Shown here: one piece after another, positions 14,170 to 37,994 of the stretch
How the letters are laid out: every line of letters starts with the position of its first letter
How positions within the stretch are numbered: position 1 is the first letter of the stretch
Assembly: GCA_031363325.1 (NCBI GenBank)
Contig: JANLUE010001505.1
Coordinates: 1-37,994, forward strand
Direction of reading: 5' to 3'
Origin: Gemmataceae bacterium
Lineage (GTDB): Bacteria > Planctomycetota > Planctomycetia > Gemmatales > Gemmataceae
DNA: 37,994 bases
Notes under the pieces: generated by a model
The model's database searches: none
The model's input: only the letters and a program-made list of their open reading frames with translations
What the model was told of the DNA's origin: nothing
Translations under genes and position numbers: made by a program

Positions 14170-14346
14170 CGCGTCGGGCGTCCGATCACTTGGCCCAGGT
14201 AATTCATTTCGACCCGAACGGCCAAACGGGTCGTGCGGGCTTCGCCGACTGCTTGGTCCGCATGTGCCGACGATTCGGGATGACACGGCGGCCAATATTT
14301 CGTAAGAATTCTGTTGCCTTACCGACACACCTCAGCGCGCAGGGAC

Positions 14347-17112: not shown

Positions 17113-18509
17113 CCTTGAGTCGCCGCGAGCTCCTGGGGACCGGCGTGGCGTTCGCGCTCGGTGAACGATCGTTCGCCCAGGCGGCACCCCGCGTCCGCCG
17201 CGATATCGCGGGCCTCAAGGCAAACGCCCCGGACATCGAGGCGTTGGCGGCCGGCATCAAAGCCATGCGCGCGAAGCCGCCGAACGACCCGCTGAACTGG
17301 AAAAACTTTGCCGAGCGTCACGGCCGCCTCGATTCACGTGTGACGACTGACTGCCAACATGGTTCGTGGTTCTTTTTGCCGTGGCATCGGGCTTACGTGC
17401 ACCGATTCGAGCAAGCGATCGCCGAGCTTTCGGGACACAAGGCCTTCGCACTTCCGTTTTGGGCATGGGAACGCGACTTCGCGATGCCCAAATTGTTCGA
17501 CGCGGGTGGCGTGCCCGAATTCGACAATCCCACGCGGGCGGGCAAGCCCAACGCCGGCCGCAAGAACCCGAAGGCCTTTCCGCAGGCCATCGTAAAGACG
17601 AAGTTCAGCAAGCGGGCACTCGAACTGTTGCTGAACTCGCCGGACTTTGCGACGTTCGCCGGCGGCGATCCAGACGACAAAATCGTCGGAGCCTTTGCGG
17701 GGGCACTTGAGAACAATCAACATCGGTACATTCACGAATGGGTCGATGGCGACATGGGAGAGGCGGGCTGTCCGTTCGACCCGATCTTTTGGCTCCACCA
17801 TTCAAACGTGGACCGGCTCTGGGATGCGTGGGCCCGCATCAATCCAAAGCGGCACCCTGCCGCGAAAAGTTGGCTCGACAAGACCTTTCCAAGTGTGAGT
17901 CCCGACGCCACGAAGCCGCTCCGCGTACGCGACCTGCTCGGCGACCAACTTGGCTACATCTATGAAGGGACTCGGGCCGCAGGCGATATGAGCCCAGTTT
18001 CGGCGACTTCCAAGACCTCGATCGGCTTGCAGGCTCCGTCCGGAGCTTGGACGCGAATGACGGAAGGCGATCTGGCGGCCACTCCAAGGGCCGCCAAAAA
18101 CGCGGGTGCCCTGTTCGCATCGGCCCTCGACGAGCGAGGGACCAGTCGAGTCCGGCTTCGACTTCGAAAGCTCAATCCCAAGGCTGATCCTCGGGCGATT
18201 CTCGAAGTTTATCTCGCCATCGACGCCAAGCCGATCAAGCCGGATCCCGAAGGCCCGGCGTTTGCCGGCTCGGTTTCCGTCGCCGAGCGATGGATGTCGG
18301 CCGACGAACACGGCCATGGCCCCGGGGGCGTCGCACTCGACGTGACGCTACCCTTCCGCGAACTCACGCGACCGCTCAATGGCAAACTGCCACCCGACAT
18401 GACGGTTCGTTTCGTCCCGCGAACCGTGGGCGGCGAGTCGTGGCGCGGCGAGTGGAAAGACCTCGTCCCGACCGAAGTGACTTTTGACGTCGTCCAGCCG
18501 GGCGAGTAA
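17109..18509 (+). CDS. Tat-exported tyrosinase / polyphenol oxidase (type-3 copper) with C-terminal lid domain
   Basis: Twin-arginine signal MTLSRRELLGTGVAFAL. CuA motif HGSWFFLPWHRAYVHRFE. CuB motif HRYIHEW...DPIFWLHHSNVDRLW. About 150 aa of C-terminal extension. The ATG at 17109 is in frame within the longer ORF 16590..18509. Confidence 0.9.
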   Translation: MTLSRRELLGTGVAFALGERSFAQAAPRVRRDIAGLKANAPDIEALAAGIKAMRAKPPNDPLNWKNFAERHGRLDSRVTTDCQHGSWFFLPWHRAYVHRFEQAIAELSGHKAFALPFWAWERDFAMPKLFDAGGVPEFDNPTRAGKPNAGRKNPKAFPQAIVKTKFSKRALELLLNSPDFATFAGGDPDDKIVGAFAGALENNQHRYIHEWVDGDMGEAGCPFDPIFWLHHSNVDRLWDAWARINPKRHPAAKSWLDKTFPSVSPDATKPLRVRDLLGDQLGYIYEGTRAAGDMSPVSATSKTSIGLQAPSGAWTRMTEGDLAATPRAAKNAGALFASALDERGTSRVRLRLRKLNPKADPRAILEVYLAIDAKPIKPDPEGPAFAGSVSVAERWMSADEHGHGPGGVALDVTLPFRELTRPLNGKLPPDMTVRFVPRTVGGESWRGEWKDLVPTEVTFDVVQPGE

Positions 18510-19091: not shown

Positions 19092-19250
19092 CTCGACGCG
19101 GTGAGTTCGCCGCGACGCCTATTCTCGGGTTCGCGTCCTCCCTTTGCCCGACCGTCGCCCATCTGCTACACTTCACTCTACCTACCGGCCCACGCTCGCA
19201 ATCGCCCACCATCGCCCACCGAATTGACTCTCCGCACTCCGGGTGAACGC

Positions 19251-22200
19251 ATGTTCCTTCGTCGATTCGTACTGGCTGCCTTGTTCGCCGCCGCTCTGCC
19301 GCTCGCGGCCCAGGAGAAGATTCCGGCCGGACGCACCGTCGCCAAGCTCGACGCCTGGCCAGCGACGATCGAACTGAAGCACACGTTCGACTACGCACAA
19401 ATTCTGCTCACCGCCACGCTCGACAACGGCGATTCGGTCGACGTCACGCGGATCGCCAAGCTTGAAGTGCCGGCGATCGTCAAGGCGACGTCGGCCGGGC
19501 TCGTTCGGCCCGTGGCCGAGGGTAGCGGGGCGATCAAGGCATCGATCGAAGGCAAGTCGCTCGAAGTGCCGACGAAGGTTTCGGGCTTGAAGACCCGCTA
19601 CGAAGCGTCCTTCGTCACCGATGTCGCGCCAGCCATGTCGAAGCTCGGCTGCAATGCCGGCACCTGCCACGGTTCGCTCGACGGCAAGAACGGCTTCAAG
19701 CTTTCGCTCCGCGGGTACGACCCGCTGTACGATCATCGAGCCCTGACCGATGATCTTGAAGGGCGTCGCTTCAACCGGGCCGCCCCGGACCGAAGTTTGA
19801 TGCTCATGAAGCCGGGTGGGGCCGTTCCGCACGCAGGCGGCATCGTGTGGCAGCCGGGCGACCCGTACTACGAACTCGTCAAGACGTGGATCTCCGAAGG
19901 CGTGAAGCTCGACCTGAGTTCGCCGCGCGTCGCCAGCCTCGAAGTTCTGCCGAAAGACCCGATCATCCCGGCCATCGGCCTCAAGCAGCAGTTCGCCGTG
20001 TACGCCAAGTACACCGATGGCAAGGTTCGCGACGTGACGGCCGAAGCGTTTATCGATAGCGCCAATACCGAAGTGGCGACCGTCGATAAGACCGGTCTGG
20101 TCACGACGGTTCGTCGTGGCGAAGCGACGATGCTCGCCCGCTACGAAGGGGCCTATTCCGCGAGTACGCTCGTGAGCATGGGCGACCGCTCCGGCTTCAC
20201 CTGGTCGAACCCGCCTCAGTTCAATCACCTGGACGGGCTCGTCTACGAGAAACTCAAGCGCGTAAAGGTATTGCCGAGCGAGTTGTGTTCGGACGCGGAC
20301 TTCGTGCGCCGAATTCACATTGACCTGATCGGCCTGCCGCCGGAGCCCGCTGTGGTCCGTTCGTTCCTGGCCGACGCTCGAGCCACGCAGGTCAAGCGCG
20401 ATGCCTTGATCGACGCGCTCGTCGGGTCGCCGGAGTACATCGAACACTGGACGAGCAAATGGGCCGACATGCTCCAGGTGAACCGCAAGTTCCTGGGCGA
20501 TGTCGGCGCGAAAGCGTTGCGAGACTACATTCGCAAGGCCGTCGCCGAAAACACCCCCTACGACAAGTTCGCCCGCGCGGTATTGACGGAGAGCGGCTCG
20601 AACGCCGAGAAGCCGGCCGCCGCGTACTACAAGGTTCTCCGCGAGCCCGATGCCGCCATGGAGAACACGACGCACCTGTTCCTGGCGATTCGCTTCAATT
20701 GCAACAAGTGCCACGACCATCCGTTCGAGCGCTGGACCCAGGATCAGTACTATTCGCTGGCCTCGTTCTTCGCGCAGGTCGGTCGGGCCGAGGACCCGAA
20801 GTACAAGGGCCAACGAATTGGCGGTAGTGCGGTTGAAGGGGCCGTCCCGCTCGTCGAAGTGATCTCGGATACGGGGGGTGGTGAAGTCACGCACATCCGC
20901 ACGGGGCAGACGGCCAAGCCATCCTTCCCGTACACCCACAAGGATTTGCCGACCGGCAAGGAGCCGCGTCGCGAGCAGGTCGCGAAGTGGATTACTTCGC
21001 GCGACAACCCGTACTTCGCGAAGAGCTACGTTAACCGCATCTGGAGCTACCTGACGGGCGTCGGCATCATCGAGCCGGTGGACGACATCCGGGCCGGCAA
21101 CCCGCCGACGAACCCGGCCCTGCTCGATCGCCTGTCGAAGGACTTCATGGAGAGCAACTTCGACGTCCAGAAGATGATCAAGACGATCTGCAAGAGTCGC
21201 ACGTATCAACTCGCCGTGTCCACCAACAAATGGAACGACGGAGACGACATCAACTATTCGCACGCGTTGGCCCGTCGCCTGCCCGCCGAGGTGCTGTACG
21301 ACGCGATCCACCGCGTGACCGGGTCGGCCTCGCGCTTGCCCGGTTTGCCGGTCGGTGCGCGGGCGTCGCAGGTGCTCGATGGCACCGTCGACTTGCCGAG
21401 TGGGTTCCTCGATCTGTTCGGCAAGCCGGTCCGCGAGAGCGCCTGCGAATGCGAGCGCTCGAACAGCATGATGCTTGGGCCGGTTTTGAACCTGGTGAAC
21501 GGGCCGATCGTCGGCGATGCCCTGCGCGACCCGGCCAATCGCCTCGGCAAGATCGCGGCGGCCAACCCGGACGACAAGAAGTTCGTCGAAGAAGTGTACC
21601 TCGCCATTCTGAATCGCCTGCCCTCGGCGAAGGAACTCGAAATTGGCCTGCGCGCCGTCAACGAAGGCATGGCCGACCACGCGACGCAGACGGCCGAGTT
21701 CGCCGGCAAAATGAAGACGTTCAAGGATCACGAAGCGAAGGTCGATGCCCGTCAGACCAACTGGGAACGCGGGATTTCCGAAGCCCCGACGTGGGAGTTG
21801 CTCACGCCGACGACCGTGGCCTCGATCAACAAGGCGAAGTTGAACATCAACAAGGCCGATCAAACGGTCCTCGTCAACGGCCCGAATCCCGAGAAGGAAA
21901 CCTACACGGTCACCTTCAAGTCCAAGCTCGCGCTGGTCACCGCCCTGCGGCTCGAAGCGCTGTCCGACCCGACTCTGCCGGCGCAAGGCCCCGGCCGGGC
22001 CGATAACGGCAACTTCGTGCTCGGCGAATTCACCGTGAAGGCCGGCCCGTCCGAGAAACCGATGGAATCGAAGTCGATCGTTTTGCACAGGCCGGTCGCC
22101 ACGTTCTCGCAGGAGGGCTACCCAATCGCCAACGTGCTCGATGGCAACCCGACGACCGGGTGGGCGATCTCGCCGCAGATTGGCAAGTCGCAATCGGCCC

Positions 22201-22562
22201 TGTTCGAGTTGAAGGACGTGCTGACCTACGAGAAGGGCACGTTGTTCACGATCACCCTGAAGCACGAGTTCGGCCAGAAGCACACGATCGGCAAGTTCCG
22301 CGTCTCGGCCACGTCGGACGCGCAACCGAAACTCGCTGACGGCGTGCCGGAGAACCTGCGAAAGCTGATCGCCATCCCCGCCGCCAAGCGAACCGACGCC
22401 CAGAAGGCGGAGATACAAAACATTCACCGCTCGCAGGACGCGGAGTATCAGCGACTTGCGGGCACGGTCGCGCTGCCGCCGCCAAGCGACAAGCGCGTCA
22501 CGGGTGCCCAGGACCTGGCGTGGGCGCTGATCAACAGCCCGGCGTTCCTGTTCAACCATTGA
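19251..22562 (+). CDS. DUF1549/DUF1553 (PSCyt/PSD1-type) planctomycete protein with Ig-like domain
   Basis: About 1103 aa from the ATG at 19251. Signal peptide MFLRRFVLAALFAAALPLAA. It has SKLGCNAGTCHGS, FNCNKCHDHPFERWTQDQYY and the C-terminal ...NSPAFLFNH typical of this family. Confidence 0.85.
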   Translation: MFLRRFVLAALFAAALPLAAQEKIPAGRTVAKLDAWPATIELKHTFDYAQILLTATLDNGDSVDVTRIAKLEVPAIVKATSAGLVRPVAEGSGAIKASIEGKSLEVPTKVSGLKTRYEASFVTDVAPAMSKLGCNAGTCHGSLDGKNGFKLSLRGYDPLYDHRALTDDLEGRRFNRAAPDRSLMLMKPGGAVPHAGGIVWQPGDPYYELVKTWISEGVKLDLSSPRVASLEVLPKDPIIPAIGLKQQFAVYAKYTDGKVRDVTAEAFIDSANTEVATVDKTGLVTTVRRGEATMLARYEGAYSASTLVSMGDRSGFTWSNPPQFNHLDGLVYEKLKRVKVLPSELCSDADFVRRIHIDLIGLPPEPAVVRSFLADARATQVKRDALIDALVGSPEYIEHWTSKWADMLQVNRKFLGDVGAKALRDYIRKAVAENTPYDKFARAVLTESGSNAEKPAAAYYKVLREPDAAMENTTHLFLAIRFNCNKCHDHPFERWTQDQYYSLASFFAQVGRAEDPKYKGQRIGGSAVEGAVPLVEVISDTGGGEVTHIRTGQTAKPSFPYTHKDLPTGKEPRREQVAKWITSRDNPYFAKSYVNRIWSYLTGVGIIEPVDDIRAGNPPTNPALLDRLSKDFMESNFDVQKMIKTICKSRTYQLAVSTNKWNDGDDINYSHALARRLPAEVLYDAIHRVTGSASRLPGLPVGARASQVLDGTVDLPSGFLDLFGKPVRESACECERSNSMMLGPVLNLVNGPIVGDALRDPANRLGKIAAANPDDKKFVEEVYLAILNRLPSAKELEIGLRAVNEGMADHATQTAEFAGKMKTFKDHEAKVDARQTNWERGISEAPTWELLTPTTVASINKAKLNINKADQTVLVNGPNPEKETYTVTFKSKLALVTALRLEALSDPTLPAQGPGRADNGNFVLGEFTVKAGPSEKPMESKSIVLHRPVATFSQEGYPIANVLDGNPTTGWAISPQIGKSQSALFELKDVLTYEKGTLFTITLKHEFGQKHTIGKFRVSATSDAQPKLADGVPENLRKLIAIPAAKRTDAQKAEIQNIHRSQDAEYQRLAGTVALPPPSDKRVTGAQDLAWALINSPAFLFNH

Positions 22563-27640: not shown

Positions 27641-30600
27641 TCACACCGATCGCTTCACGTCAAATACATCGCGATCAACGACATCGAGCCCATCGACCGA
27701 GATCAGGTCCACGCTGCCATCGCGAGAGATGACCTGGTCCGCGTCGGCCCCGCCGACCATCGTGTCGCGGCCCGTCCAGCCGATCAGGGTGTCGTTGCCC
27801 GATCCGCCATCGAGCGAATCGTTGCCGGCCCCGCCATGCAAGAAGTCCCCCTGGGCCCCGCCGATCAGGGTGTCGTTGCCATCGTCTCCGAAGAACAGGC
27901 CCTTCCAGAACGCGCCGGCCGTCGCGTCCATCTCGATCCGATCGTTGCCGCCCAGGCCGTAGACCGTGACGGTTTCGCCTTCGAGATAGTTGAAGCGAAT
28001 CTCCTGACCGTTCAGCGTGACAACCGCGACCGGGTCGCCGTTACCATCGACTTCGCGCTTCACGAGGATCACATCGTTGCCAGCGGTACCTTCGATGACG
28101 AAGCCGTCTTCATCCGCCCCGAGGTTGACGATGTCGCCGCCCGGGTTCGGAGCCGAATCGTTGCCCGCGTTGCCGAACAATCGATCGAGGCCGGCCCCGC
28201 CGATCAACGTGTCGTTGCCCGCGTTGCCGACCAGCGAGTCGTCGCCAAGACCGCCGAGCAGCGAGTCTGCGTTCGAGCCGCCCAGGATCGTGTCGTTGCC
28301 GGCCGCCCCATCAATCGTCGTTCGGCCCGAGAACGCCGTCGCGTCGATCGTCTGGCTGGCCGCGTCGCCCGTGATCAGGGCTTGCTCGAAATCGGAGATC
28401 GTGTCGGTCCCCTCGGAGATCATCGACGCGTCGGTCAACGTGATGGTCGTCGCGTTCGAGATCACGCGGATCGTATCGACCCCGTTGCCGCCATCGAGAA
28501 CATCGTCTCCCTTGGCCCCGGCGATTCGATCGTTCGCGTTGCCGCCTTGAACGGTCGCTTGACCCGAGAAATCGCCGAGGAAGACGTCGTTGTTGTTTCC
28601 GTTGACGAGCCGCAGGTTGAGTTTCTCCAACCCACCCAGGGCATCGACGACGGCCGCCCCGCCGTTGTCGGTGAAGACCGTGGCGACGTCGCTCATCGAG
28701 AACGTCATGCGGTTGTTCGACTGCAGGACTTCGTCGAAGGTGTCGATCCCGGAGCCGCCCTGAACGGTGTCTTTCCCCGTCCCGCCGGTCAGCACATCGT
28801 TGTCGCCGCCTCCGGAAACGTTGTCGTCTCCCGATCCGCCGATGACCGTATCGTCCCCGACTCCGCCACTGAGAACGTCGTTGGACCCTTGCCCATCGAG
28901 CCGATCGTTGCCGGCGTTTCCGGTCAGCGAATCGTCGCCGACTCCGCCCTGAATATCGTCTCCGGCCGACCCGCCGATCAGGTTGTCGTTTCCGTTCGCG
29001 CCGACGAGCGTGACCGGCCCATCGAAGTTGGCCGCGTTCATGGAGTTGTTGCCGACGCTCCCGACGAGTTGAGCGGCCTCGATGCTCTGCAAGGCATATT
29101 GATGGTTGCCCCCGATCCCATCGACGTTGATGAACAGGGCGGTGTTCGTGAGGCTGAAGTCCGCGTTCGCGCTTTCGGACAGGATGTCGTCCCCGGCCCC
29201 GCCATCGATCGAGTCATCTCCGAGATTGCCCACGATCGAATCGAGCCCCTGGCCCCCGAAAATCGAGTCGGCCTTCACGCCGCCGAACAACGAATCGTTC
29301 CCAAGGCCGCCGTTCAGAGTCACCGGCCCGGAAAAGGCCTGGGCGCTGATGCGGTTGTTGGCGTCGGTTCCATCGAGTTGAGCCCGATCGATCTGGGTGT
29401 GCGTGTCGCGTCCTTCGCCGTCGAAGATTGTGTTCGTGATCAACCCGTTCAAGGCGATCGTCGCGTCGAGTCGGTCGTTTCCGAGCCCGCCATCGATGCT
29501 ATCGTCTCCTTCGCCGCCGCGAATCGTATCGTCGCCGAGCCCGCCGAGCAGCGTGTCCTTGCCGTCGCGACCACTGATCGAATCGTCGCCGTTTTCGCCT
29601 TCGATGCGATCGGCCCCGCGACCGCCCGTCAGGAAATCGCCGCCCTTGCCGCCCTTGATGGTTGCGTTGCCATTGAACGTGAGGGCACTGATCTGGTTCA
29701 CGGCGTCGCTGCCCGTGAGCACGGCCCGTTCGATCGATGTGAAGGTAACCAGCTCGACGCCGGGGTTGCGTGTGAAGTTGACGTCGCTCAGGAACCCATC
29801 GTTGCTGATCGATGCGACCAGCACGTCCGAGCCCCCGCCGCCATTCAGCGTCGCCTTGCCCGTGAAGGCCGTCACATTGAAGCTATCGTTCCCGGTGCCG
29901 GCGTTGATCTCGATCTCCTCGACGGCCGTCAACGAATCGGTGCCAACGCCAACGAGTTGCGTGTTTGCCAGGACGAACGCAGTCGCTGTGTTTGATCCGT
30001 TCTCGAAGACCCGGTCCGTTCCTTGACCACCGTTGAACGTGTCGTTGCCCGAGGACCCGAACATTGTGTCCTTACCATCGTTTCCGGTGAACAGATCGTT
30101 TCCGGCCGCTCCGTTGAGAACATCGTCGTTTGAGCCGCCGACGAGGGTATCGTTGCCGAGCCCGCCGGAAAGCGTGACCTTGCCATCGAACGCGGCCGCG
30201 TTTAGGTTGTTGTTCCCGTTGCCGCCGGTCAAGTTGGCGAGTTCGACTCCGTTGACTTGATCCAGTCCAACGCCGGCCAGGGTCGTGTTCGTGAGCGTGA
30301 AGCTCACGTTGGCCGTCTCGGTGATCTGGTCGGTCCCGAGCCCGCCGATCAGCACATCGTTTCCGGTGGAGCCCGTCAGGGTATCGTCGTCTTGCCCGCC
30401 ATCGAGGAGGTCGTCGCCGAGTCGTCCATCGATGGAGTCGTTGCCGATCCCACCGACCAGCACGTCTTTGCCATTCGACCCGACGATCGTGTCGTTCCCG
30501 GAGCCTCCATCAATGTTGACGTTTTGCGAGAAGAAACTCGTGTTGAGTGCGGACGCGTTGATGGTATCCGCGCCACCATTTCCATTGACGATGAGTCCGA

Positions 30601-30811
30601 ACGTATCGGAGAGCGTGTGCCCTGTGTTGGCGTTATTGACCTGGATCGCGCCGTTGCTCAGCGAGCGCACGGTGATCAGGTCGTTGGCCGCGTCCCCGGT
30701 GACGGTCAGGATGCCGTTCGAGAACGAGACCGTGAACGCGGGCACGATGCGATCGCCGAGCGATTCGAGGTTCAGGCGGAACTTGCGATTCTTGCGCTTG
30801 AGCTGGCTCAT
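27641..30811 (-). CDS. large RTX-type calcium-binding repeat protein (hemolysin-type GGxGxD nonapeptides)
   Basis: 1056 aa from the ATG at 30811 (MSQLKRKNRKFRLNLESLGDRIVPA...). Dozens of GGxGNDxLxG-type repeats run throughout. Confidence 0.85.
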   Translation of the reverse strand: MSQLKRKNRKFRLNLESLGDRIVPAFTVSFSNGILTVTGDAANDLITVRSLSNGAIQVNNANTGHTLSDTFGLIVNGNGGADTINASALNTSFFSQNVNIDGGSGNDTIVGSNGKDVLVGGIGNDSIDGRLGDDLLDGGQDDDTLTGSTGNDVLIGGLGTDQITETANVSFTLTNTTLAGVGLDQVNGVELANLTGGNGNNNLNAAAFDGKVTLSGGLGNDTLVGGSNDDVLNGAAGNDLFTGNDGKDTMFGSSGNDTFNGGQGTDRVFENGSNTATAFVLANTQLVGVGTDSLTAVEEIEINAGTGNDSFNVTAFTGKATLNGGGGSDVLVASISNDGFLSDVNFTRNPGVELVTFTSIERAVLTGSDAVNQISALTFNGNATIKGGKGGDFLTGGRGADRIEGENGDDSISGRDGKDTLLGGLGDDTIRGGEGDDSIDGGLGNDRLDATIALNGLITNTIFDGEGRDTHTQIDRAQLDGTDANNRISAQAFSGPVTLNGGLGNDSLFGGVKADSIFGGQGLDSIVGNLGDDSIDGGAGDDILSESANADFSLTNTALFINVDGIGGNHQYALQSIEAAQLVGSVGNNSMNAANFDGPVTLVGANGNDNLIGGSAGDDIQGGVGDDSLTGNAGNDRLDGQGSNDVLSGGVGDDTVIGGSGDDNVSGGGDNDVLTGGTGKDTVQGGSGIDTFDEVLQSNNRMTFSMSDVATVFTDNGGAAVVDALGGLEKLNLRLVNGNNNDVFLGDFSGQATVQGGNANDRIAGAKGDDVLDGGNGVDTIRVISNATTITLTDASMISEGTDTISDFEQALITGDAASQTIDATAFSGRTTIDGAAGNDTILGGSNADSLLGGLGDDSLVGNAGNDTLIGGAGLDRLFGNAGNDSAPNPGGDIVNLGADEDGFVIEGTAGNDVILVKREVDGNGDPVAVVTLNGQEIRFNYLEGETVTVYGLGGNDRIEMDATAGAFWKGLFFGDDGNDTLIGGAQGDFLHGGAGNDSLDGGSGNDTLIGWTGRDTMVGGADADQVISRDGSVDLISVDGLDVVDRDVFDVKRSV

Positions 30812-31080
30812 GACGTTGACTCCGAGACGATGGATGATGGCGGTCCGCGAAGGAATGAGCCCGTAACCCGAGCGTGCGAACGGAATTCGCCCAGGGGAGC
30901 TGGCCGGAACCGTGTTCGCCGGCCGCGATGATTGCGTTGTGATTGGCGTCTCCGACGCCGCCGAGACTTGCCGTGTCCCTACCAACTACCTGGCCGGCCC
31001 GCGGAGAAGTGTGACCGGAATCGATCGGAGGCGAGCGAATCGTTGTCGGTCAATGAGTAACCAGTACTGAGAAATCACTC

Positions 31081-31190: not shown

Positions 31191-31260
31191 ACTGAGTACT
31201 GAGTACTGAGTACTGAGTACTGAGTACTGAGTACTGAGTACTCAATACTCAGTACTCAAT
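31191..31260. repeat. heptanucleotide microsatellite (ACTGAGT)x7 followed by ACTCAAT-ACTCAGT-ACTCAAT
   Basis: Counted directly: seven perfect tandem ACTGAGT units at 31191..31239. Three units of the reverse-complement type follow at 31240..31260. The last one overlaps the kinase stop codon (31256..31258). Confidence 0.95.
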
Positions 31261-34006
31261 CGTCCTTGACGCGTCGCGTCGACTGGGTCAGTTGTTTGAA
31301 TTCGTCCGTCGCAATTATTTCGGCGAAGACCGCGTCGTTGCGGAGACGCGACCAGTCTCGCAGGCCGCGATTGGACGCCACACCCAGGGCGATCAACGCT
31401 TGTCGGTGATGGATACGAACGAAGGCTTGCTCGGCCGGCGTATTCCCAAATCGGGCCGCCACACGTAGGGCGAATCGAGCCTGGCGTATGGCCAGATCCA
31501 CGTCGGGCGCGCGAAAGGAATTGAGATACGTCGCGAGATCGGAAGCTTCACCAATCGACTTCCGCCGCAGGAGCAAGTCGCCCAGGTCGATTTGCCAGGC
31601 CACGATCGCCTGGGCGTGGCGTGAGTTCTTCGGTTCGAGCCGATAGACCGCCTCGATCTCGACCTTGGCGTCGCGCATGGCCACGACCGCGTCGTCCAGT
31701 CGCTTCGGGTTCTTCGAGAGATAGACGCCCAGTCGATGGGCGATTTCGCCCGCCCGATACCGGGCGGCCAGGCCGGCGGGGTAGCGCTTCAGGTAGTCGC
31801 GCATGATCCGCAGGGCGGCCCGATAGTTCGACTCCGCATCGGGATCGCCGACGCGTTCTTGCGTTCGCGCCAGCACGGCCATCACATTACTTTCGACGTT
31901 CAGATACTTCGGGTTCACGTTCAGGCGTTGATGAATGTCCGCGATGCGCTCGACGAGGGGCCGCATCATCGTCAACGATTCCGGGTATTGACGTGACTGA
32001 TAGAGCAAACGTGCTCGCTCCGCGACAATGGAAATGGCCGCCCACTGATACATTTCATTGTGCGGGAATTCGTTGGCCAGTTCCTCGACGATCGGTTGGG
32101 CGTCGTCGAGCGATTCGCAGCGAAAGACCGGCAGCCGATTCGACTCCAACGCGTACACCCCGAGGATCGCCTCACACAATCGAAAGCGAGCGGCCGGCGA
32201 TGGGTTCTTGGCCCGACCTGCGCTCCGAAGTTCCTGGAACGCTTGCTCGTACACGAGGTCGGCCTCCGCACCGCGATCCTGTCGAACGAGTGAGATCGCC
32301 CGAATCGCGAGCGTCGACCCATAGCCGCTTCGATACTCCGCGTCGTCCGGCGCTTCGACGAGCAACTGTCGGAAGAGCGCCTCGGCCTTGTCCAAACTCG
32401 CGTTCGCCGCCGCGAAGTCCATAAACCCGAGCGACGTATCCGCGTCGTCCGAATACGCCACCGCCAGCAAATAGCGAATGTCCCGTTCGTCGCGAAGCTC
32501 GGCACGCAGTTCGTTCAACGCTTCGATGGTGTCGCGAACATGGACGCGACGAAGTTGAACGCCTTCCGAAACCTCGGTCGAAAGTTGATGGAAGACTTGC
32601 CGGCGACGATCGAAGGTTTGCAGTAGATGGCCGAAGTTTCCATCGGCCCGATCCTTCGCCTGCCGGGCCTGGTCCGCTTCCCGGTCGGCCCGTTCTTGCT
32701 CGGCGCGGGCGTGGTCCAGGGCCTTGACGAGTTTGTCGTTCGCCGTCTCGACCTGGGAGTTCTTGAAGAACAGGACGCACGTCGTGCCGGCGAGAGCGAG
32801 AATCAATCCGACGATCGCGGTCGTGACGATTTGCCGATGGCGCTTGGCCCATTTCTTGGCGTGCTGCCAGGCGGACGGGCGCTTCGCGAGAATGGGCCGA
32901 TTGTCCAGGAATCGCCGCAAATCGTCGGCCAGGTCCCGCGCGGTTCGATAGCGCTCGTCCGGGTCCTTGGCCATCGCCTTGCGGACGATCACGTCCAATT
33001 CTTCCGGCACGTTGCGATCGACGAGGCGAACGGAAGGCGGTTCGCGCTCGGAGATTTGCCGCAGCAATTGCTCGCGGGTCTCGCCCGGATACGCCGGCCC
33101 GAGCGTCAGCATTTCGTAGAGCGTCACGCCGAGCGAATAGACATCGCAACGATGATCGACCGGCCCCGGCCGAAGCGTCGCCTGCTCGGGGCTCATGTAC
33201 CGGAGCGTGCCGACCACGTCACCGGTCATCGTTAGGCGAACATCGCTCCGCACGTGGGCGAGTCCGAAGTCCGTAACCCAGACCTGGCCGTCCGGGTCGA
33301 TGATCAAGTTCGCCGGCTTGATGTCGCGATGGATGACGCCGTTGGCGTGCGCGTACTCGAGCGCCTCGGCCGCCTGGACGCCGCAGCGCGCGACCCAGGG
33401 GTAGTAATCCGCCTTGCGGCCCGAGCGAACCGTCGAAAGCAACCCCTGGGGAGGCGTCGTGTCGCCTTCGATCGGCGCGGGCTTCGTCGTCCGCAACTCC
33501 GCGATCACCTCGGCGACCGTATGGCCATCGATGAACTGCATCGCGTAGAAATGCACGCCGCGATCGGTGCCGATGCCATAGACCGGGACGATGTTCGTGT
33601 GATGCAGTTGCCCGGCGGCCTGAGCTTCCGTCTTGAACCTTTGCAATTGTCGTTGATCGAGCGCGGCCGCGAAGGGGAGAACCTTCAACGCGACGCGTCG
33701 ACTCAGGCTGATCTGTTCCGCCTCGTAGACGACGCCCATCCCGCCGCGACCGACCTGACGAACGATGCGAAAGTCGCCGAGTTGACCGGGCGCGCCGTCT
33801 TCGGTCGAACTGGGCAACGCGTCCTGATCCGGGGCCCGCATCGCGGCCAGGGTGGGAAACATCTGGCGAATGAAGTTCGCGATCCGGGGATACCGCTGGG
33901 TGTATTCCTCGATCGTCGGCGCGTCGCCGCGCGCGAGGCGATCGAGGAACTCGTCCGCGACCTGGGCCATCAACGATTCAACCGAAACGTCTTCCGCGGT
34001 GGTCAC
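31256..34006 (-). CDS. membrane Ser/Thr protein kinase with C-terminal TPR-like sensor region
   Basis: 916 aa with a GTG start. Kinase motifs VALKVL, HRDIKPANLI, DFGLA and YMSPEQ. One TM helix (IVTTAIVGLILALAGTTCVLFF). Long helical-repeat C-terminus. Confidence 0.9.
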   Translation of the reverse strand: MTTAEDVSVESLMAQVADEFLDRLARGDAPTIEEYTQRYPRIANFIRQMFPTLAAMRAPDQDALPSSTEDGAPGQLGDFRIVRQVGRGGMGVVYEAEQISLSRRVALKVLPFAAALDQRQLQRFKTEAQAAGQLHHTNIVPVYGIGTDRGVHFYAMQFIDGHTVAEVIAELRTTKPAPIEGDTTPPQGLLSTVRSGRKADYYPWVARCGVQAAEALEYAHANGVIHRDIKPANLIIDPDGQVWVTDFGLAHVRSDVRLTMTGDVVGTLRYMSPEQATLRPGPVDHRCDVYSLGVTLYEMLTLGPAYPGETREQLLRQISEREPPSVRLVDRNVPEELDVIVRKAMAKDPDERYRTARDLADDLRRFLDNRPILAKRPSAWQHAKKWAKRHRQIVTTAIVGLILALAGTTCVLFFKNSQVETANDKLVKALDHARAEQERADREADQARQAKDRADGNFGHLLQTFDRRRQVFHQLSTEVSEGVQLRRVHVRDTIEALNELRAELRDERDIRYLLAVAYSDDADTSLGFMDFAAANASLDKAEALFRQLLVEAPDDAEYRSGYGSTLAIRAISLVRQDRGAEADLVYEQAFQELRSAGRAKNPSPAARFRLCEAILGVYALESNRLPVFRCESLDDAQPIVEELANEFPHNEMYQWAAISIVAERARLLYQSRQYPESLTMMRPLVERIADIHQRLNVNPKYLNVESNVMAVLARTQERVGDPDAESNYRAALRIMRDYLKRYPAGLAARYRAGEIAHRLGVYLSKNPKRLDDAVVAMRDAKVEIEAVYRLEPKNSRHAQAIVAWQIDLGDLLLRRKSIGEASDLATYLNSFRAPDVDLAIRQARFALRVAARFGNTPAEQAFVRIHHRQALIALGVASNRGLRDWSRLRNDAVFAEIIATDEFKQLTQSTRRVKDD

Positions 34007-34629
34007 AGTTCACCTTCGGTTTCGGAAAACAACTGCCGATGGAGGCGAACGATGGCCCGGCTGTGGCGCTTGCGGGCGGCCGCCGGGTCGATGCCGAGCA
34101 GATAGGCCGCCTCTTCGTGCGAGAGCCCTTCGAAGACCCGCAGGACGATCACTTCGCGGTCGGCCGGGTCCAATCGATCAACCGCGTCGCGAACCCGGCC
34201 GGCGAGTTCCTCGCGGCTGACTTGCTGGCTCGGCGTCGAGTTCGTACCCGGCAACTGCAAGGCGAGTTGGAGGAACGAATCGTCCGGGATGCGGACTTCC
34301 CGTCCGGTGGCCCGTCGGGCCGTTGTCAGATGATAGCGACGCAGCTTGCTCATCCGCTCGGCAGCCAGTTGCCGGAGCCAGAGCCGAAACGGTACGTCCG
34401 GGTTCTCGATATACGCCTGGAACCGCCGCAGCGCCTCGAGTTGAGTCTCCTGAACGATGTCCGAGGCATCGACCCGTTGCCGGAGGCGATCGTCCATGCG
34501 GAACTGGATCATCCGAACCAGGTACGGCCGATAATGTTCGAACAAGCGGTTGAACGCGACGGCGTCGCCCGTCCTGGCTCGAACGAGCAGGCTCGCGGTC
34601 TCGGCGGTGTCCGGCGCAGGCTCCGGCAT
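34003..34629 (-). CDS. ECF-type RNA polymerase sigma-70 factor
   Basis: 208 aa. Region 2 (FNRLFEHYRPYLVRMI...DIVQETQLEALR) and region 4 (REVIVLRVFEGLSHEEAAYLLGIDPAAARKRHSRAIVRL). The stop overlaps the kinase GTG start (GTGA). Confidence 0.9.
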   Translation of the reverse strand: MPEPAPDTAETASLLVRARTGDAVAFNRLFEHYRPYLVRMIQFRMDDRLRQRVDASDIVQETQLEALRRFQAYIENPDVPFRLWLRQLAAERMSKLRRYHLTTARRATGREVRIPDDSFLQLALQLPGTNSTPSQQVSREELAGRVRDAVDRLDPADREVIVLRVFEGLSHEEAAYLLGIDPAAARKRHSRAIVRLHRQLFSETEGEL

Positions 34630-34732: not shown

Positions 34733-34761
34733 GTTAGCGCGGCTGGTGGGAAATGGTTGCG

Positions 34762-34800
34762 TTTGCACTCCCACGGCTACTAGGGTCGTGGGAATGCAAA
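34762..34800 (-). terminator. hairpin 5 nt downstream of the selenoprotein-candidate stop
   Basis: tttgcactcccacg-N11-cgtgggaatgcaaa forms a 14-bp stem with one mismatch. No clear U-tract follows, so terminator function is uncertain. Confidence 0.35.
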
Positions 34801-34805
34801 CTCGC

Positions 34806-37136
34806 TCAGGGCACGAACACGTTGTCCCGCTCGAGCGGCAACTGGAACGCGTCGGCCACGCGAGTCATGTAGTGGCAGCGACACGCCCACCAGATCACAT
34901 CAATGGCCCGGTCGGGGCCGAAGTGACGCTTCAACTCCTCAATGTCCTTCGATGTGATGTTCCACGGCTCCCGGGACATCTTGCGAGCGTAGGCGAAGGC
35001 GACGCGCTCGGCCGGCGGGAAGCCGGTCCAGTCGCCGTCGGCCAACTTCTGCGTTCGTTCCCGGATGGCTTTGTCGTCGAGGCCCGCGACCGCGAGCAGC
35101 ATTTCGGTATGCCCCATTCAGTAAAAGCACTGAATTTCTCGGGTGATCACCCAAAACAAGAGTTCCTCGAAGACGCGGTCTTGTTTGGAGTCCTCGGCGA
35201 ACCAACGCATCCCGCCGGTCCACGGGGCGGCCAGGATCGGCGAATGGCCCAGGCATACGAGGCTCCACTTGATCCGCAACGGCTTGGCGTCCTTGGACAT
35301 GTACTTTTTCACGTCGTCGAACGTCGGGACCGAGACGCGCGGCTCACGGGCCTTCTGGGCGTCCATGAATTTTTGCAGGCCCGCGAAGTCGATGCTCCGC
35401 CAGTCCGGGTCCGTCACGCGTTCGAGTGTCGCGTCGGCGATCGCTTCGATCTTTGGTCGGGGCGGCGGGTTGCCGCCCTCCCACGGCTTCTGAAAACGTA
35501 CCCCGGTGGGCGGACCGTCGGGCAGGTCGGCGACGCCGAGCGAATGGAGCATCCGATCCTGGAAGTTGCCGAACGCCACCAATTGCACGAGCGCGACGAG
35601 CTTCGGGTCGCCGAGGTCCGTGCGGACGGCGGCCATTTGTTCGTCGGTCACCTTGTAGGCTGCGAGCGTGAGTTGCCGCGCCAACTTGAGAATACGCCGA
35701 GTTTCTTCGGTGAGTGCGGCCTGATCGCCGAGCATCGATTTCACTTCCGCATCCGTCCCGCCGGCCAACTTCAGGTCGGCGAGCGCGACTTCCTTCGAGG
35801 CCGGACAGCGGAGCACGTCGGCCACGGTCCAGCGAGCCATCGCCCGGAGCTTCGGATCGAGCGGGCTCTTGGTGCGATGTAGGTCGTCGAGTTCGAGGTA
35901 GGTGGCCGTCGCCCGGGGCAGCGAACGCGCGGTGATCTTCGCCCAGGCCGGCATTGGCCCGCCCTGACCGGTCGTCGCGAGCGGCAACTTGGTCCAGGCC
36001 TCCGTCGAAGGCGGCATCGGGAATCGTTGGGCCATCGCGCGTTCCTCGGCCAAGTACACGGCGATCTGCTGTTCCAGTTCGCCGGGCTTGAAGCCGAACG
36101 GGCCACGGCCGCCCTTGTACGCGACCTTGCCCGCCCGATCGATGAAATAGAGCCGATCCGGCATGCCGCTATACAGGTGGCCGACGTGGTCGTCGATTTT
36201 GTCGACGACCAGGGGGATCGTCATCTTGAGGGCGGCGCAACATTGCGACGCGACTTCGACGCGCTCCGCGTCCGTGGTCGGTTGATCGAACGTGACGCCC
36301 GCCTTGTCGTTCGAGGCGATGCGCCAGCCGCTCGTCGGGTGCGCTTCCCGCACGTAGACGTTGATGAATTGAACCTGATCGCCGTAGATCTGATGCAGAC
36401 GTTCGAGGCGCCCAAACTGGGCGCGATACGGGCCTCAGGTAAAGCTCCCGAAAATGAGCACCACCGGCTTCTTGTCCCGGCAGTCGCTCAAGGTGTAGGT
36501 TCGCTTGCCATCGAAGCTCGTCAGCGTGAAGTCCGGCGCTGCACTCTCGTGTTTCGGCCCTTCGGCACCGGAACCAAGTTCGCCCGTCATCAAGCCAATC
36601 AGAAGCGTGGCGGTCGATGGGCCGCCTCCACCAGGCGGCGGGCTCTTTGGGGGCGGTGGGAAAAGCAATTGACGCAGGTCGTCCGGCTCCATCGTGTCTT
36701 TGCAGCCGGTCGCCCGATCGAACAGGCCGGTCCATTCCGCTTTATTTAGTTTGCGGTCGGCGTTCTGGTCGCCGCGTCGAACGAGCGATCCCGCGATCGC
36801 CATCTGCTTCGAGTAGGTGCTACCGTCGGACCAGTCGAAATCGTCGGCCGTGATGAAGCCATCGCCATCCCGGTCAAGAGCTTTGAACGCCATCGCCGGC
36901 CCACCAAACTCGTCGGCGGAGACGCGGCCGTTCTTGTCGCGGTCGAACTGCTTCTGGAATCGAGCCCAGGAGTAGCGAACGTGGCTGTCCTTGAACCAGC
37001 CATCGCCCGGCCCCATCTGCGAGCCGGACAGGACGGCGTCGAGCATCTGCAAGAACTCGCCCCGCGGGCGAGTCGGCGGGTCGGCGAGGCCGATGGTCGG
37101 GAGGAATGCCATGAGTGCGAGCGGAAGTCGGGACAT
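34806..37136 (-). CDS. predicted secreted selenoprotein: signal peptide, EF-hands, deiodinase-like thioredoxin fold, tandem AhpD/CMD-like domains; two in-frame UGA codons read as Sec
   Basis: Three ORFs (36435..37172, 35118..36353, 34806..35117) are contiguous in one frame, separated only by TGA at 36435..37 and 35118..20. Conserved domains run straight across both TGAs: FGSFT-U-GPY...VYVREAHPTSGW, and ITREIQCFY-U-MGHTEMLL. The total is 776 aa from the ATG at 37136 (MSRLPLALMAFLPTIGLA). Confidence 0.7.
35082..35097 (-). promoter_or_regulatory. candidate SECIS hairpin for UGA-2
   Basis: The mRNA reads GCUCGC-GGUC-GCGGGC: a 6-bp stem including one G-U pair, with loop GGUC. The loop G residues are 27-28 nt after the UGA. 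Confidence 0.45.
36408..36424 (-). promoter_or_regulatory. candidate SECIS hairpin for UGA-1
   Basis: The mRNA reads GCGCCCA-GUU-UGGGCGC: a 7-bp perfect stem in a 17-nt element that begins at the 11th nt after the UGA. Confidence 0.55.
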
Positions 37137-37168
37137 ACGCAAAATTCCGGATCGGGCGCTCGGTCGAA

Positions 37169-37390
37169 TCAAGCTTTCGTCGATTCCGTCGTTCGGTTTC
37201 GCAGGTATTCTCGCAGCGCCGCATTGACCGCCGCCTCGTCCGCGAAGGCGGCAGCGACATCGTCCGCGAGACGAACCACACGAAGTCGCTCGCGATATCG
37301 ATCGAAGTATTTGCCGCGGACAACGCCTCGCAACGAACGAAAGTCGTAGTCCGACCGCAACTCGTCACTCGATTCAGGGGAAGTTGCCAT
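37169..37390 (-). CDS. brnA: BrnA-like antitoxin
   Basis: 73 aa from the ATG at 37390 (MATSPESSDELRSDYDFRSLRGVVRGKY...). The '(D/E)YDF...RG' pattern is typical of antitoxins paired with BrnT. It overlaps brnT by 17 nt. Confidence 0.65.
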   Translation of the reverse strand: MATSPESSDELRSDYDFRSLRGVVRGKYFDRYRERLRVVRLADDVAAAFADEAAVNAALREYLRNRTTESTKA

Positions 37391-37655
37391 CTTCGTAGTC
37401 CTTTCGCTCACCACGATTTGCTTCTCGCGCACTGATGATTCGAATTCGACCATCACGGTCGGTGTGAGATACGATGATCACACGGCCGCCATTTGACAAC
37501 CCCACTGTAATGTACCGATCTTCGTCGTCCGAGTGATCGGGATCGAAACCCGTCGCGGCCAATGGATCGCCGAAGACCGTCATCGCATCGCCAAAGGTGA
37601 CATCGTGTTTCCGGGCATTCGCATCCGCCTTCTCATCGTCCCATTCGAACTCCAT
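37374..37655 (-). CDS. brnT: BrnT-family (DUF497) toxin
   Basis: 93 aa. MEFEWDDEKADANARKHDVTFGDAMTVFGDP...RIISAREANRGERKDYE is the classic BrnT signature. Confidence 0.85.
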   Translation of the reverse strand: MEFEWDDEKADANARKHDVTFGDAMTVFGDPLAATGFDPDHSDDEDRYITVGLSNGGRVIIVSHTDRDGRIRIISAREANRGERKDYEDGNFP

Positions 37656-37717: not shown

Positions 37718-37994
37718 CTACTTTTTCCCCGCCCCCTGCTTCAACTCCATCACGCGGTCCACGTTCGGCACCTCATATTCCTCGGTGCCCGCGTCCTTGC
37801 CCGGCCAGCGGACGGTCAACTTGTCGACTTTCTCCACAAAGCCGAGGCCGAAGGTCACGGTCAATTCGCTCTGGCTCAGGTAGCCGCGGCCCGAGACGAC
37901 GTCGCGGGACTGCACTTTGCCGCCCGCTTCGATCGTCACGGTAGCCCCGATGGCCGAGCGGTTCGACTTTTTGCCGTCGCCTTGCAGGTTCAGT
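37718..37994 (-). CDS. ASPIC/UnbV domain protein (CRTAC1 family), C-terminal part; 5' end lies outside the window
   Basis: SGRGYLSQSELTVTFGLG...VDKLTVRWPG matches the UnbV_ASPIC C-terminal motif. The frame stays open to the window edge. Confidence 0.7.
   Translation of the reverse strand, partial: LNLQGDGKKSNRSAIGATVTIEAGGKVQSRDVVSGRGYLSQSELTVTFGLGFVEKVDKLTVRWPGKDAGTEEYEVPNVDRVMELKQGAGKK

Follow-up and report, generated by a model that had tools for sequence, protein, structure and literature searches.

The locus and its reading frame

The window, i.e. the whole stretch of DNA that was analysed, comprises the 37,994 nucleotides of contig JANLUE010001505.1 from a Gemmataceae bacterium (assembly GCA_031363325.1). 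The subject of this work is a minus-strand gene near its right-hand end, which appears to encode one protein with two selenocysteines (Sec, U) and with EF-hand, deiodinase-like and AhpD-like domains. Translation of the minus strand from 37136 to 34806 yielded 776 sense codons. Exactly two TGAs interrupt the frame and a third closes it; no further stop or frameshift was found across the 776 codons. The plus strand of the interval 34806-37136 contained no coherent open reading frame (ORF), and a gene on that strand was rejected. A preliminary description of this DNA had given a 776-residue frame with both UGAs decoded, without naming a strand. The minus-strand translation gave the same frame, and all motifs quoted in that description (the N-terminus, the EF-hand loops, the linker, VLRCPASKE and CFYU) were found in it. 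The elements that define the frame and its recoding are the following.

34806 to 37136, minus strand: the whole gene, 776 sense codons and a TGA stop (34806-34808), with Sec assigned to codons 234 and 673
36435 to 36437, minus strand: UGA1, assigned to Sec234, on the catalytic Sec of mouse Dio3 and on the invariant Cys of FGNFT-C-G homologues
36408 to 36424, minus strand: predicted Sec insertion sequence (SECIS) 1, a 7-bp stem GCGCCCA/UGGGCGC with a GUU loop, beginning 10 nt after UGA1
35118 to 35120, minus strand: UGA2, assigned to Sec673, on the second Cys of CxYC-MGH in Cys-form homologues
35082 to 35097, minus strand: predicted SECIS 2, a 6-bp stem GCUCGC/GCGGGC with a GGUC loop, beginning 20 nt after UGA2

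In the ORF list the region is split into three abutting pieces of the same frame (36435..37172, 35118..36353 and 34806..35117; 245/233, 411 and 103 amino acids). The first internal TGA, codon 234 (36435-36437), stands between FGSFT and GPY, and the second, codon 673 (35118-35120), between CFY and MGH. The third TGA, which is also followed by a hairpin (see below), was considered as an extra Sec codon and rejected: all homologues end 2-20 residues past a conserved ExxNVF motif, and many of them use TAA or TAG. Since the closest relatives (L001, L003 and L009) end at the same residue, their last piece having the same length (103 amino acids) as in the window, the third TGA is, on this comparison, a true stop.

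Selenocysteine recoding at the two internal UGA codons

A search with the read-through protein returned 561 homologous database clusters, the best 120 of which were aligned, and 82 related loci (L001-L082) were compared at the DNA level. Among the best 120 of the 561 clusters, site 1 was Cys (FGNFT-C-G) in all 93 homologues covering it, and site 2 was Cys (C-x-Y-C-MGHCEM) in 78. In the same set, 43 database proteins terminate exactly at "...CFY", and nine of these, about 430 amino acids long, begin right after site 1 and stop at site 2. Such proteins are the footprint of gene callers halting at Sec codons. At the DNA level the codon at site 1 was always found as FGS-FT-TGA-G or FGN-FT-TGY-G, and that at site 2 as CFY-TGA-MGH or C[N/P/...]Y-TGY-MGH. 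The residues beside the sites thus track Sec, with FGS-FT-U versus FGN-FT-C (S/N at position -3) at the first site and CFY-U versus CNY-C at the second. The two-TGA layout of the gene was met again at 14 distinct loci among the relatives, and 15 metagenome contigs show it as well.

Bacterial SECIS elements were sought as stem-loops just 3' of the UGA with a G in a small apical loop about 16-37 nt from it; the small apical loop with a G is the recognition feature of bacterial SECIS (PMC1088965). The apical-loop G lies 18 nt after UGA1 (GUU) and 27 nt after UGA2 (GGUC). The first hairpin follows the pattern NNNCCCA-GUU-UGGGNNN in 36 of 36 distinct Sec-form loci, with 7/7 pairs in 32 of them; at the same position 49 Cys forms had at most 5/7 pairs. 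In the alignment 97.6 % of the cells were paired, 28 cells were compensatory (GC, AU, CG and UA at one pair), none of 500 shuffles reached the observed value, and pairing collapsed in slid registers. This hairpin occurs only once within the window. The second hairpin was present with 6/6 pairs and the GGUC loop in 40 of 40 Sec-form loci, and Cys forms had 2-5 of the 6 pairs. Pairing was 100 % with six compensatory cells (0/500 shuffles), and the rare variants, namely CUGGC/GCCGG and a closing pair A..U or C..G, were themselves compensatory. Along the Leu-Ala-Val-Ala-Gly codons of this hairpin, synonymous third positions were invariant among proteins just 40-68 % identical, which argues for selection on the RNA.

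Folding of the single sequence after each UGA gave no significant result against shuffles (z -0.34 and +1.19), and a search of the window against Rfam at gathering thresholds returned 0 matches, which says nothing about these two hairpins. For these reasons the case for the SECIS elements is built on comparison between loci, and for both elements this comparative evidence is strong.

It was considered whether both TGAs could be genuine stops. The organism would then lack Sec decoding, the region would be a pseudogene in decay or three separate small genes, and the fusion would be a read-through artefact. The gene callers, which cut all Sec-form relatives at the TGA codons, the unexceptional free energies of the single hairpins and the lack of an Rfam match would fit such a reading, and selA, selB, selC, selD and tRNA-Sec were not found in the 38-kb window. 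Neither were Sec machinery genes or tRNA-Sec found in the flanks of 49 related loci; since sel genes need not be linked to selenoprotein genes, their absence near the gene is uninformative. Against genuine stops, both TGAs fall on invariant catalytic Cys columns, and the first would sever the thioredoxin (Trx) fold at its active site, the next possible start lying 28 codons on, inside the domain. Moreover, at least 14 related loci (45-68 % identity) retain both TGAs in the identical arrangement, and past each of them the protein sequence is conserved. The hairpins are strictly TGA-linked and carry compensatory changes and frozen synonymous sites, and the neighbouring residues (S/N at -3, F/N in CxY) change with Sec. 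We consider genuine stops very improbable. Because the UGAs are aligned with Cys and are followed by TGA-specific, covarying hairpins, both are taken to be decoded as Sec, and it appears nearly certain that the gene specifies one genuine two-Sec selenoprotein with deiodinase, EF-hand and AhpD domains, as the single read-through polypeptide of the preliminary description had implied.

Domain organization of the protein

The segments of the polypeptide are listed from the N-terminus.

37083 to 37136, minus strand: signal-peptide-like N-terminus, residues 1-18, MSR followed by the hydrophobic LPLALMAFLPTIGLA (from sequence inspection)
36729 to 36971, minus strand: EF-hand region (Pfam EF-hand_1/5/6/7)
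36909-36944, minus strand: EF1 loop DRDKNGRVSADE, canonical in the window and in only a subset of the family
36840-36875, minus strand: EF2 loop DRDGDGFITADD, residues 88-99, canonical and conserved family-wide
36735-36770, minus strand: EF3 loop DQNADRKLNKAE, conserved in the family, degenerate in the window (Arg at the Gly6 position)
36615 to 36662, minus strand: Pro/Gly linker FPPPPKSPPPGGGGPS, residues 159-174 (from the sequence)
36069 to 36545, minus strand: deiodinase-family Trx-fold domain, residues 198-356 (PF00837, NF038285, Dio3 core, Foldseek)
35517 to 35984, minus strand: AhpD/CMD-fold repeat 1, about residues 385-540, with the degenerate motif VLRCPASKE and a single Cys444
34845 to 35261, minus strand: AhpD/CMD-fold repeat 2, about residues 626-764, with the redox motif C670-F-Y-U673-M-G-H676

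A structural model was made with AlphaFold for the Cys/Cys homologue P0007, which is 49 % identical to the window protein, with the three exact pieces of the window in the alignment (mean predicted local distance difference test score 90.5). The signal-like N-terminal stretch of the window protein reads MSRLPLALMAFLPTIGLA, and an alternative TTG start at 37172 would merely extend the n-region of this segment. Hydrophobic N-termini of a similar kind are found across the homologues, and in the P0007 model a helix (2-16) is followed by a low-confidence linker. The protein is therefore predicted to be exported. EF1 and EF2 are 12-residue loops of the DxDxDG type with ligands at positions 1, 3, 5 and 12 and flanking helices, and the EF-hand region is helical in the P0007 model; binding of Ca2+ is predicted from these features. 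These findings agree with the preliminary description, which had proposed a Sec-type signal peptide (seen here by inspection and in homologue N-termini only), EF-hands including a weaker third loop (now backed by Pfam matches and loop conservation) and the Pro/Gly linker.

The Trx-like domain belongs to the deiodinase family. It matched Pfam T4_deiodinase (PF00837) over residues 198-356 (E 5e-26; 91.8 bits, cut-off 27), and the NCBIfam model NF038285 "deiodinase_rel" matched residues 25-364 with 439.5 bits (cut-off 250) over 340 of its 347 positions, which means that the EF-hand plus deiodinase unit is already a curated family. When compared with solved structures, the domain matched the mouse Dio3 core with E 7e-19 and Dio2 with 6e-17, and generic thioredoxin-family proteins with about 1e-4. 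UGA1 falls on the Sec of Dio3, and Y-[VI]-x-EAHP-x-x-GW and GGRGP-x-G are common to Dio3 and the window protein. Thus the domain has the S-x-T-U/C context, the EAHPxDGW and GGRGPxG signatures (in the window FGSFT-U-GPY, VYVREAHPTSGW and GGRGPFGF) and a Trx fold with the deiodinase insertion. In a Foldseek comparison the α/β domain of the P0007 model was closest to Dio3 (4tr3) and Dio2 (9h48), with template modelling (TM) scores of 0.77-0.81, ahead of ResA and peroxiredoxin (Prx). The deiodinase-like Trx fold carrying U that had been proposed before is borne out by these matches.

The Foldseek ranking, in which ResA, DsbE and TlpA-like proteins come right after the deiodinases, also bears on the idea that the protein is a periplasmic thiol-disulfide (or Se/S-compound) oxidoreductase of the ResA/TlpA/DsbE type, acting on disulfides and having no peroxide or halogen chemistry. 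The Trx domain gave weak Pfam matches to Redoxin and AhpC-TSA (the latter with 28.4 bits, beneath the stronger deiodinase match), some homologues carry the Joint Genome Institute (JGI) label "thiol-disulfide isomerase/thioredoxin", and the predicted exported location would suit such an enzyme. However, the domain has a single redox residue (T-U-G-P) and not the CxxC that defines ResA, TlpA and DsbE, the deiodinase-specific motifs are conserved, and the sequence similarity to structures of the Trx family is about 15 orders of magnitude weaker than that to Dio3. We regard this alternative as improbable.

For the C-terminal half a profile made from 15 family members was searched against the PDB. 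The matches of repeat 1 (2ijc, 2o4d and 6k40; E about 1e-8) include PA0269 and AhpD (6k40), and its Cys444 aligned with the first Cys of the PA0269 CxxC. The only match of repeat 2 in the PDB was the debrominase Bmp8 (6ohi), with E 2.5e-6 for the profile and 0.001 for the single sequence. The whole C-terminal half of the P0007 model matched human Sestrin2 with a TM score of 0.60 over about 426 columns, the helical bundles superposing; Sestrin2 is a two-fold pseudo-symmetric double AhpD-fold protein (PMC4674687). The Pfam CMD match to repeat 1 was barely above threshold (23.8 bits versus 23), and TIGR01926 matched two stretches with 46-50 bits against a cut-off of 81.8. Membership in NF041238 (AhpD_rel_CFYUT) was rejected, since the score was 23.8-26.4 bits versus 175 and covered just profile positions 234-337 of 357. 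With the TIGR01926 and NF041238 scores so far under their cut-offs, the module lies outside both families. Its membership is at the level of the AhpD/CMD fold superfamily (PF02627, TIGR01926) and not at that of a family. In the preliminary description this half had been read as two CMD/AhpD-like repeats, of which one, the first, has a degenerate motif and the other CFYU. The PDB profile matches and the Sestrin2 superposition agree with that, so that the deiodinase-like and the CMD-like assignments have both now found support in the Pfam, NCBIfam, PDB and Foldseek comparisons.

Distribution of the family and Sec/Cys states of the two centres

One genome per species was scanned for relatives, and at least 589 species genomes were found to encode one, almost all of them from Planctomycetota (Gemmataceae, Pirellulales, Isosphaeraceae, Planctomycetaceae and others). 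Among the matches listed, the best was from a Gemmataceae metagenome-assembled genome (67 % identity). Full-length Cys forms are annotated "deiodinase family protein" or "Iodothyronine deiodinase" (WP_020472650.1, WP_146679299.1), and fragments of Sec forms "alkylhydroperoxidase family enzyme" or "hypothetical protein". In the preliminary description the domain combination was not recognised as a described architecture; with at least 589 species genomes, 561 clusters, the NF038285 model and full-length "deiodinase family protein" entries, this view no longer holds. The architecture is among the commonest multidomain redox proteins of planctomycetes.

The survey of Cys and Sec forms proposed earlier gave this pattern: the widespread architecture occurs in Planctomycetota in Cys/Cys, Cys/Sec and Sec/Sec forms, and no Sec/Cys form was found. 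In the fused genes of the 82 loci the states of the deiodinase and AhpD centres were U/U in 15 (14 distinct loci and the window), C/U in 9, C/C in about 25 and U/C in none. A naive Fisher test of this linkage, uncorrected for shared ancestry, gave p = 8e-7. Within the same loci the modules are also encoded by separate genes, which stand apart or side by side, with either one first, and among the unfused neighbour pairs a U-type deiodinase gene never stands beside a C-type AhpD gene. The existence of the fusion together with unfused and permuted variants and with a one-directional coupling of the Sec states provides a genetic argument that both centres work together. The signature of UGA2 with SECIS 2 was found in at least 120 metagenome contigs, which among the matches listed came mostly from soil and freshwater. 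Among those listed that were long enough, 15 were fused U/U, 2 fused C/U, 18 unfused and 17 AhpD-only.

Paralogues of about 890-920 amino acids seem to consist of AhpD-like repeats only (CPYC-MGH, a long C-terminal extension, Pfam CMD only). They were seen at L030, L032, L040, L062, L066, L072 and L080 and among the homologues P0016, P0030 and P0033 (about 890 amino acids), often directly downstream of the deiodinase/AhpD gene; an example is WP_148594328.1 of Aquisphaera giovannonii, annotated as carboxymuconolactone decarboxylase family protein. At L056, L059, L060 and L070 the modules follow each other in the order deiodinase to AhpD in different frames, which may reflect assembly frameshifts, separate overlapping genes or programmed frameshifting.

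Genomic context

The features downstream of the gene are these.

34761 to 34801, minus strand: 15-bp hairpin, 4 nt past the true stop (-26.5 kcal/mol, z -3.9, 0/200 shuffles)
34003-34629, minus strand: extracytoplasmic function (ECF) sigma gene
31256-34006, minus strand: Ser/Thr kinase gene

The ECF sigma and kinase genes lie downstream of the selenoprotein gene on the same strand, as had been described. An envelope redox or stress role had been hinted at from this adjacency. Among the 82 loci an ECF sigma gene was a neighbour in one and a kinase gene in three, all weak matches, and the strong hairpin separates the genes; the ECF sigma/kinase pair was therefore rejected as a functional partner, and the hint of a stress role falls with it. 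The hairpin is a near-perfect inverted repeat with the arms GTTTGCATTCCCACG and CGTGGGAGTGCAAAC. It lacks a U-tract, and a terminator scan did not call it. A dispersed repeat was considered and rejected, since only its own two arms match within the window. Probably it is a transcript-end or stabilising structure that parts the gene from the ECF sigma gene.

In about 30 of the 82 loci a same-strand cassette lies directly upstream, in which a DUF1559 protein and a small lipoprotein precede the deiodinase/AhpD gene (e.g. L012:4281-8100, L041:4304-8000, L024, L025, L040 and L062). The DUF1559 protein is of the prepilin type (PF07596 with N_methyl PF07963), and the lipoprotein has about 140 amino acids and no Pfam match. 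Two or three such cassettes occur in tandem at L029, L040, L051 and L062. The window copy has no DUF1559/lipoprotein cassette. An ASPIC/FG-GAP protein is encoded upstream in about 15 related loci (e.g. L009, L011-L015, L068 and L073), and at the edge of the window (37718-37939, minus strand) the C-terminus of an ASPIC/UnbV protein (PF07593) runs off the end. Directly upstream of the selenoprotein gene lies a gene for a BrnT toxin (PF04365, 37374-37655) overlapping a 95-codon ORF (37169-37456), both on the minus strand; the latter is presumably the BrnA antitoxin. Because relatives usually have the DUF1559/lipoprotein cassette or an ASPIC/FG-GAP gene at this position, the BrnT/BrnA pair may be an insertion.

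Just beyond the kinase gene, at 27641-30985 on the minus strand, lies a gene for a 1114-residue protein with 14 RTX nonapeptide stretches (PF00353, E 6e-85), which is predicted to be another exported Ca2+-binding neighbour. Further genes of the window encode a 639-residue protein with a tyrosinase copper domain (16590-18509, plus strand; PF00264, E 1e-33), a fatty-acid desaturase (14314-15513, plus strand; PF00487), a PSCyt2/PSD1 (DUF1549/DUF1553) protein (19101-22562) and a 1730-residue BNR/Sortilin/matrixin multidomain protein (7969-13161). The tyrosinase, desaturase, PSCyt2/PSD1 and BNR/Sortilin genes are typical planctomycete content.

Proposed function of the two redox centres

Taking into account that the two modules occur fused or adjacent in either order and that their Sec states are linked, they are likely to be functionally coupled. 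Export is suggested by the signal-like N-termini found family-wide and by the upstream cassette with the prepilin-type DUF1559 protein and the lipoprotein. The reading that we favour, at a probability of roughly 60 per cent, is that of an exported, Ca2+-binding oxidoreductase with two selenocysteines, whose two centres work as a relay, the substrate being left open. SelB-dependent recoding at the two SECIS hairpins would place Sec at codons 234 and 673. Sec234 would be the nucleophile and would be converted to Se-OH (or Se-X) on attacking an electrophilic atom in a small substrate. A hydroperoxide oxygen, in a peroxiredoxin/AhpC-like chemistry, would be the most likely target, a halogen the alternative. 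Much as AhpD recycles AhpC, the C670-x-x-U673 centre would then resolve the Se-OH (or Se-X) form by way of a selenenylsulfide or diselenide, and would in turn be re-reduced by an external periplasmic thiol donor. AhpD repeat 1 would serve as a catalytically degenerate structural partner in an intramolecular pseudo-dimer, and the EF-hands may stabilise or regulate the exported protein.

Several observations weigh against this relay. Some U-type deiodinase_rel genes stand by themselves, their retrieved flanks containing no AhpD partner, so that the AhpD module is not obligatory. The predicted template modelling score of the P0007 model (0.63) suggests that the packing of the domains is uncertain, the putative signal peptide was judged by eye, and the Sec machinery is missing from the window (see above). 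The nucleophile motif is of the deiodinase type (S-x-T-U), not the peroxiredoxin T-x-x-C, and among solved structures the catalytic AhpD repeat is closest to a debrominase and not to a peroxidase. Finally, the enzymatic role of the whole family is a prediction made from sequence.

A peroxide substrate is the conservative choice in view of what Sec is typically used for, of the likeness of the fold to Trx and Prx and of the precedents set by AhpD and Sestrin. AhpD is the adaptor and reductant of AhpC (PMC3141380), the N-terminal AhpD-like domain of Sestrin2 reduces alkylhydroperoxides (PMC4674687), and adjacent genes for Prx-like and AhpD-like selenoproteins were seen in Global Ocean Sampling (GOS) reads (PMC2398784). 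In view of the deiodinase-type motif and of the debrominase as nearest solved relative, peroxide is only a modest favourite, a tentative assignment of well under even odds.

The same two features lead to a reading with the same architecture and relay, in which the protein would act in the periplasm as a reductive dehalogenase dependent on thiol/selenol, or would scavenge halogenated or hypohalite-derived compounds. As in the mammalian deiodinases, X+ would be abstracted from C-X (or N-X) by Sec234, and the Bmp8-like CxxU would recycle Se-X or dehalogenate by itself. The Trx domain is specifically of the deiodinase family, with Dio3 and Dio2 far ahead of generic thioredoxins (see above), and Bmp8, a tetrabromopyrrole debrominase, is the one relative of the catalytic repeat with a solved structure. 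The CMYCxxH of Bmp8 can be aligned with the CFYUxxH of the window protein, the CxxCxxH spacing being common to both, whereas the peroxidase-related 2oyo (CxxCxxxH) needs a gap to align with the motif. For Bmp8, dehalogenation is proposed to proceed by oxidation of the cysteines to a disulfide, HBr being released (PMC5577590). With a deiodinase fold and a Bmp8-like repeat, the two cofactor-free thiol/selenol dehalogenation chemistries that are known would be fused in one protein. On the other hand, Bmp8 is only remotely similar (E 0.001 for the single sequence), the great majority of AhpD-fold CxxC proteins reduce peroxides or disulfides, and Zhang et al. (2005) took the bacterial deiodinase-like proteins as generic redox proteins (PMC1088965). 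Furthermore, no halogenase, haloperoxidase or organohalide-metabolism gene was among the conserved neighbours in the 82 loci, and most source samples were soil or freshwater, not halogen-rich marine habitats. Dehalogenation is a serious rival, though an unlikely one that stands behind the peroxide version of the relay.

Comparison with known systems

The nearest named proteins are the planctomycete "deiodinase family protein" entries, 41-49 % identical to the window protein over 97 % of its length; WP_020472650.1 (Zavarzinella formosa, 830 amino acids) and WP_146679299.1 (Pirellula sp. SH-Sr6A, 826 amino acids) have the same full architecture. These entries are Cys/Cys, whereas the window gene has Sec assigned to both centres, two SECIS elements and three called ORFs. 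The NF038285 model describes the N-terminal part only (347 positions), and its name carries no selenoprotein flag.

The bacterial deiodinase-like family, together with Dio3 and Dio2, shares with the window protein the homologous Sec position and the FGSxTU, YxxEAHPxxGW and GGRGPxG motifs, and the bacterial family also the SECIS with a G in a small apical loop (PMC1088965). In the passages available from a 2026 review the deiodinase-like proteins are a single-Sec family, to which the window protein adds EF-hands and a double AhpD module with a second Sec. It lacks an animal-type membrane anchor or dimerisation segment, and one would not expect thyroid hormones as its substrates; a thyroid-hormone role of the bacterial deiodinase-like proteins was already doubted by Zhang et al. 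(PMC1088965).

The AhpD-like CxxU selenoproteins (TIGR01926, NF041238 and the Sargasso "hypothetical protein 1") have the all-helical AhpD/CMD fold and the CxxU of the window protein, whose motif spells out C-F-Y-U, the letters that the name of NF041238 also contains. Unlike NF041238 and TIGR01926, the window protein has a tandem module, in which the first repeat is degenerate and which is joined to a deiodinase fold. The mycobacterial AhpC/AhpD pair works alike in that a Prx-type nucleophile is recycled by an AhpD-fold CxxC (PMC3141380). In the window protein the partners lie in one chain, are predicted to be exported and use Sec, and the nucleophile is of the deiodinase type: FGSFT-U stands in place of the peroxidatic motif PxxxTxxC. 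It may work in analogy with the AhpC/AhpD system without belonging to it. The C-terminal half shares its two-fold pseudo-symmetric double AhpD layout with Sestrin2 at a sequence identity of just 14-16 %; the redox-active half of Sestrin2 is the N-terminal one, whereas in the window protein the redox-active repeat is C-terminal. Bmp8 (6ohi/6ohj), the closest solved relative of the catalytic repeat at remote similarity, is a cytoplasmic single-domain Cys enzyme from a biosynthetic gene cluster, unlike the window protein.

Bacterial genes with two Sec codons had been called uncommon, which is fair, though the 2026 review, in the passages available, lists several other bacterial families with 2-3 Sec per polypeptide. 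One of these likewise uses the CxxU of an AhpD domain, with partner domains that differ from those of the window protein, and the deiodinase/AhpD combination is absent from the term-matched passages of that review. Metagenomes have yielded deiodinase-like selenoproteins and AhpD-like ones with CxxU since 2005 (PMC1088965, PMC2398784). In the literature searched (one collection) no description of the fusion, of its Sec/Sec form or of its SECIS elements was found, nor was an account of the Sec trait in Planctomycetes.

Significance of the double selenoprotein

The protein joins two known selenoprotein families into a double selenoprotein, one that recurs and has been mis-annotated. No new kind of system is involved: the domains, the Sec positions, SECIS recoding and multi-Sec proteins were all known beforehand. 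Its Sec/Sec and Cys/Sec forms are systematically split into two or three ORFs, and the SECIS signatures described above would mend their annotation. Through them the prokaryotic catalogue would gain a double selenoprotein; as far as the passages available from the 2026 review go, it now holds the deiodinase-like and AhpD-like proteins as separate single-Sec families.

To our knowledge no bacterial member of the deiodinase family has been characterised biochemically. The family described here gives a concrete handle on the long-open function of the bacterial deiodinase homologues, in the form of a choice between peroxide and organohalogen. It is conceivable, and in our estimate unlikely, that the family represents a class of reductive dehalogenases, or of scavengers for halogenated compounds, which is widespread in Planctomycetota, works in the periplasm with selenol/thiol and needs no cofactor. 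One exported protein would then unite the only two chemistries of this kind that are known, deiodinase-type Sec attack on a halogen and Bmp8-type dehalogenation by CxxC/CxxU, and the strict coupling of the Sec states would reflect an obligatory Se-Se/Se-S relay. If this were true, it would provide a function for the bacterial deiodinase-like proteins, which have been orphans for 20 years, and a pointer to the evolutionary origin of thyroid-hormone deiodination.

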